Below, one piece after another: positions 416-689 of a DNA stretch of 64,000 nucleotides. The stretch comes from Alphaproteobacteria bacterium. GTDB lineage: Bacteria > Pseudomonadota > Alphaproteobacteria > RF32 > CAG-239. The notes below the pieces were generated by a model that worked only from the letters and a program-made list of their open reading frames with translations, was not told the origin of the DNA and made no database searches. Where the stretch lies: NCBI GenBank assembly GCA_017626035.1, contig JAGAJR010000017.1, positions 4,900 to 68,899 on the forward strand, written 5' to 3'. The number at the start of each line of letters is the position of its first letter. Position 1 is the first letter of the stretch. A program made the translations under genes and the position numbers.

Positions 416-450
416 AGGTTCAAACAAAAGTTTGTTGATATATTTATTAT

Positions 451-472
451 GGGGGTATAGCTCAGTTGGGAT
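451..472 (+). pseudogene. truncated 5' fragment of tRNA-Ala (acceptor stem plus D-arm only)
   Basis: 28-nt identity (ttattatGGGGGTATAGCTCAGTTGGGA) between 444-472 and 607-635; upstream copy diverges inside the D-loop. Confidence 0.6.
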
Positions 473-480
473 GGCTAAGT

Positions 481-505
481 AAAAACAACACTTGTGTTGT
501 TTTTG
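481..505 (+). terminator. hairpin plus T-run immediately after the truncated tRNA fragment
   Basis: AACAACA-cttg-TGTTGTT stem followed by TTTTT. Confidence 0.45.
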
Positions 506-613
506 TCTGTAACATCTTGACTACCTTGATTGAACAAGGGAGCGGTAGCGACTGCAGAGCAATTTAGGTACTCAAGGCGTTTGAACAAACGCTCGTTTTT
601 AATAAGTTATTAT

Positions 614-689
614 GGGGGTATAGCTCAGTTGGGAGAGCGTTTGAATGGCATTCAAAAGGTCAGCGGTTCGATCCCGCTTACCTCCACCA
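614..689 (+). tRNA. tRNA-Ala (anticodon GGC)
   Basis: Cloverleaf with G3:U70 alanine identity pair, anticodon loop ATGGCAT, encoded CCA end. Confidence 0.9.

Follow-up and report, generated by a model that had tools for sequence, protein, structure and literature searches.

A truncated tRNA-Ala copy between promoter and intact gene

Why should a truncated copy of the 5' end of a tRNA gene stand between that gene and its promoter? The question is raised by the tRNA-Ala(GGC) locus in a 64-kb stretch (64,000 nucleotides (nt), hereafter the window) of contig JAGAJR010000017.1, assembled from an Alphaproteobacteria bacterium. The insert between the two tRNA copies was found to hold a core copy (copy A, 469-576) of a ~110-nt two-hairpin repeat element that is lineage-wide, so that what lies at tRNA-Ala is one instance of this element and not a stray pseudogene.

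Direct reading of the sequence places TTATTATGGGGGTATAGCTCAGTTGGGA at 444-471 and an exact second copy at 607-634, both on the plus strand, i.e., 28 nt repeated 163 nt apart, which is far beyond chance expectation. The initial annotation had given the repeat as 444-472 and 607-635; the duplication itself is real, but both ends were set one base too far, base 29 being T in one copy and G in the other. The repeat comprises a 7-nt leader (TTATTAT) and tRNA-Ala positions 1-21, with its D-loop end at GGGA, and local alignment matches the 28-nt copy perfectly to tRNA positions -6 to 21. Its upstream copy forms the left flank of the element, and its downstream copy the start of the intact tRNA-Ala(GGC) gene (614-689, plus strand; ARAGORN; Rfam tRNA model, 65.4 bits), whose 3' end is also repeated (678-688 = 881-891, 11 nt). 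Positions 357-991 are base-identical across three independent metagenome assemblies of the same species, so that an assembly artefact is excluded for this region; among these three assemblies, no polymorphism was seen there within the window's own species.

The sigma-70-type promoter TTGACA-16-TATTTT noted earlier was located at 388-415 on the plus strand (promoter scan, 10 of 12 matches). It is the sole plus-strand promoter-like site in a scan of 340-1000 and the only one 5' of both tRNA copies; the same scan found no second promoter for the intact gene, for which candidates picked by eye were weak only, with a start that would fall inside the tRNA. Homologous promoters (TTGACA...TATATT) precede tRNA-Ala(GGC) at three related loci (L045, L064, and L067). 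The perfect hairpin plus T-run described near 481-505 was likewise recovered, reading A5-CAACAC-TT-GTGTTG-T5 at 481-504. A terminator scan leaves this hairpin unflagged and reports one site, a hairpin at 576-593 followed by a T-run. The 135 nt of insert (472-606) contain no open reading frame (ORF).

A two-hairpin core conserved in structure

The motif common to the window's four tRNA loci reads GCTAAG(Y)AAAAA-hairpin-TTTTT(R)TCTG(Y)AA and has ~70 nt of semi-conserved sequence on its 3' side. In the fold derived from it, helix P1 is formed by the 3-5 nt 5' of GCTAAG pairing with the 3-5 nt 3' of TCTGCAA; P2 is a hairpin flanked by A5/U5; and the internal loop between P1 and P2 sets GCUAAG opposite UCUGCAA (GCUA opposite GCAA). 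Domain 2, a long irregular hairpin (CUUUGG, ACAUCUU, an inner hairpin, UAGAUG, CCAAAG), abuts P1. In copy A (plus strand), P1 is 469-473/513-517, the loop sets GCTAAGT (474-480) opposite GTCTGTAA (505-512), P2 is the hairpin at 481-504, and domain 2 spans 518-576. P2 resembles a bidirectional terminator but is weak here, with an inner stem of -1.8 kcal/mol.

The fold was obtained from 93 non-redundant aligned copies, in which 18 of the 25 predicted pairs show compensatory changes. A covariance model built from the element alignment (R1) recovers 124 plus 26 copies in the fetched loci (150 in all) and scores copy A at 82.7 bits (E = 5e-17). Across the 124-copy alignment, standard pairs occupy 95.5% of cells; shuffling lowers this figure to 73.8% and sliding the partners to ~45%. 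Changes on both sides were seen at 25 of 30 pairs. The helices are nearly all Watson-Crick (60 G.U and 32 A.C in 3536 cells), and 19 of the 60 G.U fall at one single pair, which shows 19 U.G vs 2 C.A. At the Rfam gathering threshold, the whole window yielded only its four tRNAs, and relaxed searches (E up to 10 for window 380-960; E up to 1 for L016 5450-5800) returned nothing credible. Readings as hammerhead, group I, or group II RNA were ruled out by size, missing core motifs, and the lack of an Rfam match.

As for P2 on its own, motif matches that lack domain 2 proved to be plain truncations in the loci examined. One version of this hairpin, AAAAACAACCGYTGCTCCGGTTGTTTTT, is repeated without change, even in its loop, among cores whose remaining sequence differs (at many loci, e.g., L001, L015, L034, L080, and L084), and it is also present in a core type without the GCTAAG/TCTGCAA loop (divergent cores at L007 4177-4288 and L098 5911-6022). 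This hairpin may spread, or be homogenised, as a module of its own.

Distribution across a gut-associated clade

A motif scan of species-representative genomes returned at least 120 loci, nearly all in metagenome-assembled genomes (MAGs) of uncultured Alphaproteobacteria from human, mouse, chicken, and ruminant guts, including 'Candidatus Scatocola'. Coding DNA in the window shares 67-78% identity with the closest of those MAGs; judged by this identity, the window is from a related member of the same gut Alphaproteobacteria clade. The element family is specific to a clade of uncultured gut and rumen Alphaproteobacteria, where it lies mostly at tRNA genes. Among 130 copies, 76 have a tRNA gene no more than 450 nt away. 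Downstream of the tRNA, 39 of them are on the opposite strand and 28 on the same strand; upstream, nine are on the same strand and none on the opposite one. The rest are interior copies without a nearby tRNA (23) or copies too near a locus edge to judge (31). Seen from the genes, a copy lies at most 450 nt away from 42 of 52 interior tRNAs, and these cover Ala, Arg, Glu, Gly, His, Leu, Lys, Met, Phe, Pro, Ser, and Val isoacceptors.

A comparison with mobile-element and phage databases, as the initial annotation had advised, gave no match by BLAST against plasmids and one match each in the phage and viral collections, both resembling host DNA. The viral-contig match (L129) is a tRNA-Ala(CGC) locus whose arrangement is likewise of the upstream type. 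The phage match (L130; GenBank MT838567.1, 'UNVERIFIED Bacteriophage sp.') has no tRNA and carries the two best-scoring cores (1642-1754 and 3461-3573), 1.8 kb apart, each beside one unit of a gene pair that is duplicated in tandem; the record probably represents DNA of a bacterium of this clade and not of a phage. No description of the element family was found in the literature, and it is apparently undescribed.

Filled and empty sites among relatives

Whether the segment is an insertion can be addressed with orthologous tRNA-Ala(GGC) loci in related genomes, a comparison that had been called for. The site is filled in L067 (~175-nt insert) and empty in L045, two loci with identical tRNA-Ala(GGC), homologous promoters, and a neighbouring protein 81% identical; L064 is also empty at this gene. 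At tRNA-Ser(TGA), L029 and L008 are empty, with the promoter directly in front of the tRNA. By these sequence comparisons, the 163-bp arrangement is a true insertion/deletion difference. The window's junction at tRNA-Ser(TGA), GAATCGCAG, recurs in L066 (where the partial copy has decayed), L116, and L003. The window is more distant and has different neighbour genes, and carries the same insert as L067 at 80-84% identity. The contrary expectation, an ancient conserved arrangement without insertion polymorphism, is therefore borne out only in part: the arrangement is shared with distant relatives, hence old, but it is polymorphic with respect to closer ones.

The flanks follow each genome's own tRNA (GGGGGTATAG vs GGGGTTGTAG; GCGTTTGAA vs GCGCTTGA), which implies that they either evolve in concert with the gene or have been formed anew repeatedly. 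When cores at one and the same tRNA are compared between species, pairing stays at 94-97% across 10-18 double changes, with sequence identity at 61-76%; the exception is the tRNA-Ser(TGA) group (83% pairing).

Flanks made of copied tRNA ends

The flanks of the core are locus-specific copies of the adjoining tRNA sequence. On the tRNA strand, loci with downstream copies have the order tRNA, trailer plus terminator, an imperfect copy of tRNA positions ~76 to ~49 in antisense, core (in either orientation), and a perfect sense repeat of the 3' end, which starts at T-loop position 57/58 in the same-strand form and at position 62-66 or 73-75 in the opposite-strand form. The tRNA 3' end, terminator, and antisense copy often make one long palindrome (L009, L014, L020, and, with 20-nt arms, tRNA-Leu in the window), and whole units are at times tandemly duplicated (in the window, 224 nt at tRNA-Ser(TGA) and 220 nt at tRNA-Leu). 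Copies away from tRNA genes sit mostly at the apex of another long hairpin repeat, for which both empty apexes (L015 and L080, ...GACAGGAGT|GTAC...) and filled ones (L001 and L037, ...GGAGT[GCTAAG...CCTAAG]GTAC...) were found. The core ends (GCTAAG...CCTAAG) are direct, not inverted, and the paired arms outside the core are locus-specific, being derived from the tRNA or from the host repeat. Duplications are 11-42 nt long, or longer for whole tandem units, and only a GG is common 5' of P1, with no fixed target tetra- or pentanucleotide.

Several routes to these junctions were considered and set aside. Simple inversion does not link the same-strand and opposite-strand downstream forms, as their junction positions differ and the opposite-strand subfamily has an extra conserved module. 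Reverse-transcription models (tRNA-primed, or with template switching onto the tRNA) predict a sense tRNA 3' end 5' of P1, whereas the observed arm is antisense. Guide-target pairing in the style of IS200/IS605 was attractive for P1, since GGAGT pre-exists in the empty apexes, but a new guide would be needed for each target. The diversity of P1 fits ordinary compensatory change, because copies with identical P2 differ throughout domain 2 as well.

The hairpins that host cores away from tRNA genes belong to a second repeat family of long imperfect hairpins with arms up to ~55 nt (..ATAATAAGA..GGAATTTTGC [apex GACAGGAGTGTAC..GTACATGACTTA] GCAAAAT..TCTGTATTAG..). It was seen in L001, L015, L016, L023, L037, L063, L072, and L080 (e.g., L016 5500-5760; L080 1760-1850), often with a core at its apex, and was not seen in the window. 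Within L080, 1430-2500 is a ~1-kb intergenic mosaic of at least three repeat families with three cores, which resembles a BIME-like array.

Upstream copies and probable read-through transcription

All nine upstream copies share one order, namely promoter, leader, tRNA 5' part, core, short hairpin, leader, and intact tRNA, and all nine are co-oriented with the tRNA. They occur at tRNA-Ala(GGC) (two), Ala(CGC), Val(GAC) (three), Thr(GGT) (two), and Glu(CTC), and L129 adds another at Ala(CGC). The end point of the repeated tRNA part is D-loop position 20-21, position 25, or anticodon-loop position 36. On the 3' side of the core, the short hairpin tracks its own tRNA: GCGCT/AGCGC in L067, GCGAT/ATCGC in L064 and L129, and GCAC/GTGC in L007. 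At tRNA-Ala in the window it is the hairpin at 577-594 (plus strand), which the terminator scan sets at 576-593 and where GCGTTTGAA, corresponding to tRNA-Ala positions 24-32, is followed by its complement CAAACGC(TC). This tRNA-derived fold-back places the core inside the D-loop of a partial copy that covers the first ~32 nt of tRNA-Ala(GGC). The second terminator claimed at 575-600 is accordingly better described as the fold-back of tRNA positions 24-32, and its T-run is missing in the orthologues L067, L064, L007, and L129.

The inner stem of P2 has a median of -1.8 kcal/mol in upstream copies, compared with -3.9 to -6.2 kcal/mol elsewhere (Mann-Whitney p = 6e-5; the nine copies come from ~5 independent loci), and this weakness may reflect selection for transcription passing through. 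The segment 422-613 is predicted to fold at -51.7 kcal/mol (z = -3.4). As the intact tRNA has no promoter of its own, its transcription most likely starts from the 388-415 promoter and yields a precursor whose structured leader is ~190 nt long. On these sequence grounds, read-through transcription appears likelier than a separate RNA of ~55 nt.

A DNA-level repeat or a functional module

We lean, on balance, towards a DNA-level explanation, in which the element is a small, non-coding, clade-specific palindromic repeat whose insertion or copying duplicates the ends of tRNA genes, the truncated tRNA-Ala copy being its left flank. Mechanistically, the element would spread, or be copied, as a DNA hairpin-forming unit and would land at loop-coding positions of hairpin-prone DNA, such as the D-, anticodon-, and T-loops of tRNA genes or the apexes of palindromic repeats. 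Repair would then re-synthesise the adjoining tRNA segment, partly by fold-back, and so leave direct repeats (28 nt here) together with inverted ones, which gene conversion could keep identical to the gene. Transcription of the intact tRNA would still start from the old promoter and run across both partial copy and element, with RNase P cutting off the ~190-nt structured 5' leader; such read-through would explain both the constant co-orientation and the weakened P2 of upstream copies. Several observations count against an RNA gene: downstream copies occur in both orientations, behind the tRNA's terminator and usually bracketed by terminators; no conserved promoter was seen; some copies are nested in other repeats or in the divergent promoter region of L130; and the stems are nearly all Watson-Crick.

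A number of points weigh against this DNA-level reading. The strand-specific G.U excess (19 vs 2) and the 9:0 orientation of upstream copies suggest that the fold is important on one strand, be it in RNA or in single-stranded DNA. The steps of fold-back repair and gene conversion are proposed from sequence patterns. Clustering of the ORFs around 120 loci revealed no recurrent mobile-element family or integrase near the copies, nor a recurrent transposase family (RAYT-type included) in the flanks of these loci; no transposase, integrase, or reverse transcriptase partner was identified, and ~1 Mb of flanking DNA yielded neither a partner enzyme nor an autonomous version. Copies in the window are mutually ~60-70% alike, which does not support recent movement here. 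The fold kept at fixed loci is not expected of stationary selfish DNA and points to function in place or to copy turnover, and non-inverted ends with 11-42 nt duplications are unlike any standard transposase footprint.

How do the other explanations fare against the same evidence? We regard as rather unlikely a host-functional module of tRNA loci, acting as an RNA leader or trailer (processing, attenuation, or termination) or as a DNA cruciform (terminator, insulator, or topoisomerase site), with the partial tRNA copies kept as part of the module. Such a function would suit a fold kept across species at the same tRNA through many compensatory changes; an arrangement 80-84% identical between the window and L067, as high as the coding DNA between those genomes; the persistence of deletion-prone direct repeats (28-42 nt, 125-165 nt apart); upstream copies that are constantly co-oriented with a P2 tuned weaker; a P2 shaped like a bidirectional terminator; and a copy at 42 of 52 tRNAs; the compensatory changes at fixed loci and the lasting direct repeats carry most weight here. 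However, the element is missing from the same tRNA in close relatives (tRNA-Ala in L045 and L064; tRNA-Ser in L029 and L008), downstream copies stand in both orientations behind the tRNA terminator, so that most would fall outside the tRNA transcript, other copies are nested in unrelated repeats and a divergent promoter region, and G.U pairs are rare for an RNA structure. A broader formulation, which we put forward tentatively, takes the core and its locus-specific arms together as a three-way-junction element: either a mobile unit that seeks hairpin apexes and copies its target zig-zag by fold-back (sense, hairpin, antisense, hairpin, sense), or a functional tRNA-locus module across an order-level clade (a structured leader or trailer, or a cruciform tuning transcription, termination, or topology).

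The repeat had earlier been suspected to be the footprint of an integrase that crosses over in the 5' half. The insert does belong to a dispersed repeat family, and in that sense it is an element footprint, but nothing points to such an integrase: the 135-nt insert has no ORF, and no integrase recurs beside the copies. A related reading, which we consider improbable, takes the element as a miniature integrative one that a tyrosine integrase supplied in trans would move by crossing over in the cloverleaf loops, with the tRNA repeats as attachment sites attL/attR. It would account for repeat boundaries at the T-, anticodon-, and D-loops, each with symmetric stem flanks, and P4-type integrases are indeed present at tRNA genes in these genomes. 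Two such islands (Phage_integrase plus Arm-DNA-bind_3; L075 808-2230 and L006 1400-2870) occupy the anticodon loops of tRNA-Val(CAC) and tRNA-Phe(GAA) and adjoin core-bearing tRNA ends, yet they are unlinked to the core; the integrases seen thus target the anticodon loops of other tRNAs. Nor does any integrase recur near copies that use many isoacceptors and non-tRNA sites as well, the left half-site is not kept at the junctions, antisense tRNA arms and covarying hairpins have no role in an att site, and the family is essentially missing from phage, viral, and plasmid collections. Even less probable, in our view, is that the 388-415 promoter drives a short functional RNA (a tRNA 5' fragment) ending at 481-504, with the intact tRNA expressed separately. 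In favour of this reading, the promoter fits the consensus, a T5 run comes after the hairpin, and in several lineages no difference separates the partial copy from the gene. A start near 422, however, would give ~85 nt rather than 55, and the supposed terminator is P2 of the 110-nt fold, whose covarying 3' half would stay untranscribed. Moreover, P2 is weakest exactly in upstream copies, no promoter for separate expression was found for the intact tRNA, and the core lies in many places without a promoter or tRNA fragment upstream. The promoter-driven, tRNA-5'-half-like RNA of ~55 nt suggested by the initial annotation is therefore unlikely.

Comparison with known systems and implications

Among known systems, the element most resembles REP/BIME or REPIN units, Neisseria intergenic mosaic elements (NIMEs), and Correia elements. 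The REP/BIME elements of enterobacteria and REPINs are short, extragenic, high-copy imperfect palindromes that lie in either orientation, form tandem or mosaic arrays, and are often terminator-like. Our element is likewise a short, non-coding, extragenic, high-copy imperfect palindrome, arrayed and terminator-like, with structure conserved beyond sequence. It differs in having two adjacent hairpins of ~110 nt with a conserved internal loop, no GTAG-type head, and no RAYT seen near the copies, and in its concentration at tRNA genes, accompanied by direct and inverted tRNA-end copies such as REPs do not make. NIMEs (dRS3 repeats) and Correia elements are similar in that a short repeat brackets units of 50-150 bp, in being lineage-specific, and in a possible terminator or promoter function; here, units are bracketed by the tRNA 3' end of the locus plus its terminator, a repeat that differs from locus to locus, and there are no conserved terminal inverted repeats and no fixed duplication. 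Within the class of small palindromic repeats, the element stands out by clustering at tRNA genes and by its zig-zag tRNA-end copies.

The known sublocations of tRNA-targeting integrases are reportedly the cloverleaf loops (T-, anticodon-, and D-loop), as Williams is said to have shown in 2002. The att duplications of tyrosine integrases resemble our loci in the partial tRNA beside an intact gene, in boundaries within cloverleaf loops, and in the presence of filled and empty sites among relatives (L067 vs L045 and L064; L029 and L008). Our loci differ in that the insert is 110-200 nt long and without genes, 5' as well as 3' ends are duplicated, antisense arms occur, and many isoacceptors and non-tRNA sites are used; the repeat at tRNA-Ala spans the 5' end (positions -7 to 21) and not the stretch from crossover to 3' end that an att duplication needs. 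A miniature inverted-repeat transposable element would have conserved terminal inverted repeats and a short target duplication of fixed length, neither of which is seen here. IS1397/ISKpn1, which insert in the loop of palindromic units, and IS200/IS605-derived PATEs share the preference for hairpin apexes and the feature of end hairpins, but here no transposase was identified, there is no conserved target tetranucleotide beyond the GG 5' of P1, and duplications are long and variable; for PATEs, the presence of any duplication and the lack of a fixed target tetra- or pentanucleotide set our element apart. Casposon and CRISPR-spacer integration is also said to target tRNA 3' ends with longer-than-usual duplications; in our case the length is not fixed, no Cas1 is present, and the element is tiny and structured.

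If the element is selfish, small palindromic repeats would colonise tRNA genes and split partial copies at cloverleaf loop positions, and the resulting 5' and 3' gene-end duplications would mimic integrase footprints, a concern for programs that find genomic islands by taking tRNA fragments as att markers. The assembly of these gut genomes would also be affected, because contigs break at element repeats. If it is functional, a lineage-wide structured module would stand at most tRNA genes of a common uncultured gut clade and bear on tRNA expression or DNA topology. Under either reading, R1 offers a handle for finding the element and for seeking a partner protein via phyletic correlation.

Other copies and features in the window

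With filters off, R1 finds six copies in the 64 kb, all adjoining the four tRNA genes. Besides copy A, tRNA-Ala has copy B (774-883, minus strand; 106.7 bits) 3' of the gene on the opposite strand, bounded by the 11-nt repeat of the tRNA 3' end. At tRNA-Leu(GAG), a divergent core (15486-15595, minus strand; 26.9 bits, E = 4e-4; repeats D3 and I25) lies 3' of the gene within the 220-nt tandem unit (15437-15507 repeated at 15657-15727), and the 20-nt perfect palindrome that joins the tRNA 3' end, its terminator, and the inverted tRNA 3' end spans 15429-15473. Copy C (27290-27397, minus strand; 96.2 bits) is 3' of tRNA-Ser(TGA) on the opposite strand, inside the 224-nt tandem unit, and copy D (27514-27628, minus strand; 54.7 bits) occupies the truncated second unit (repeat D1 for both, 99% identical); this tandem pair is the exception to the divergence among window copies. 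Copy E (52028-52136, plus strand; 95.3 bits; repeat D5) is 3' of tRNA-Ser(GCT) on the same strand, between a degenerate antisense copy of the T-arm and acceptor on its 5' side (about 52000-52030) and a perfect 25-nt repeat of the tRNA 3' end on its 3' side (52159-52183 = 51937-51961).

A second 5' partial tRNA copy (26966-27089, plus strand; repeat D10) lies between the promoter and the intact tRNA-Ser(TGA) gene (27093-27182). It consists of tRNA positions 1-36, a 23-nt insert at the anticodon loop, tRNA positions 37-47, and an inverted copy; the 23-nt insert is possibly a collapsed core. According to the initial annotation, partial duplication of the tRNA-Ala kind is present at the remaining three tRNA loci as well. 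This holds for tRNA-Ser(TGA), with its 42-nt 5' duplication (26966-27007 = 27090-27131), but not for tRNA-Ser(GCT) and tRNA-Leu(GAG), where the duplications are of 3' ends: the 25-nt repeat flanking copy E in the former and, in the latter, TTCTCGGCCGCA repeated near 15592-15603 with an inverted copy at 15454-15473.

Opposite-strand downstream cores at several loci (window 722-773 on the minus strand, L042, L006, and L114) carry an extra conserved module, CCAAGARAACGAG-N5-11-CGNNGTTYGATTGG, between domain 2 and a degenerate sense copy of the tRNA end. In filled sites, ATTATTA(T) lies directly 5' of the partial and intact tRNA copies (window 444-450 and 607-613; L067 and L007), and it is missing from the leaders of the empty sites L045 and L064; it may therefore be part of the element's 3' end. 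Three metagenome contigs of the window's species (L124-L126) begin inside tRNA-Ala (window 623 and 663), and assemblies break at tRNA and repeat regions. Elsewhere in the window, the adjacent paralogous ORFs 5731-6864 and 6806-7801 (together 5731-7801) share stretches of 83-89% identity (repeats D4 and D9), suggesting a tandem gene duplication unrelated to the tRNA-Ala element.

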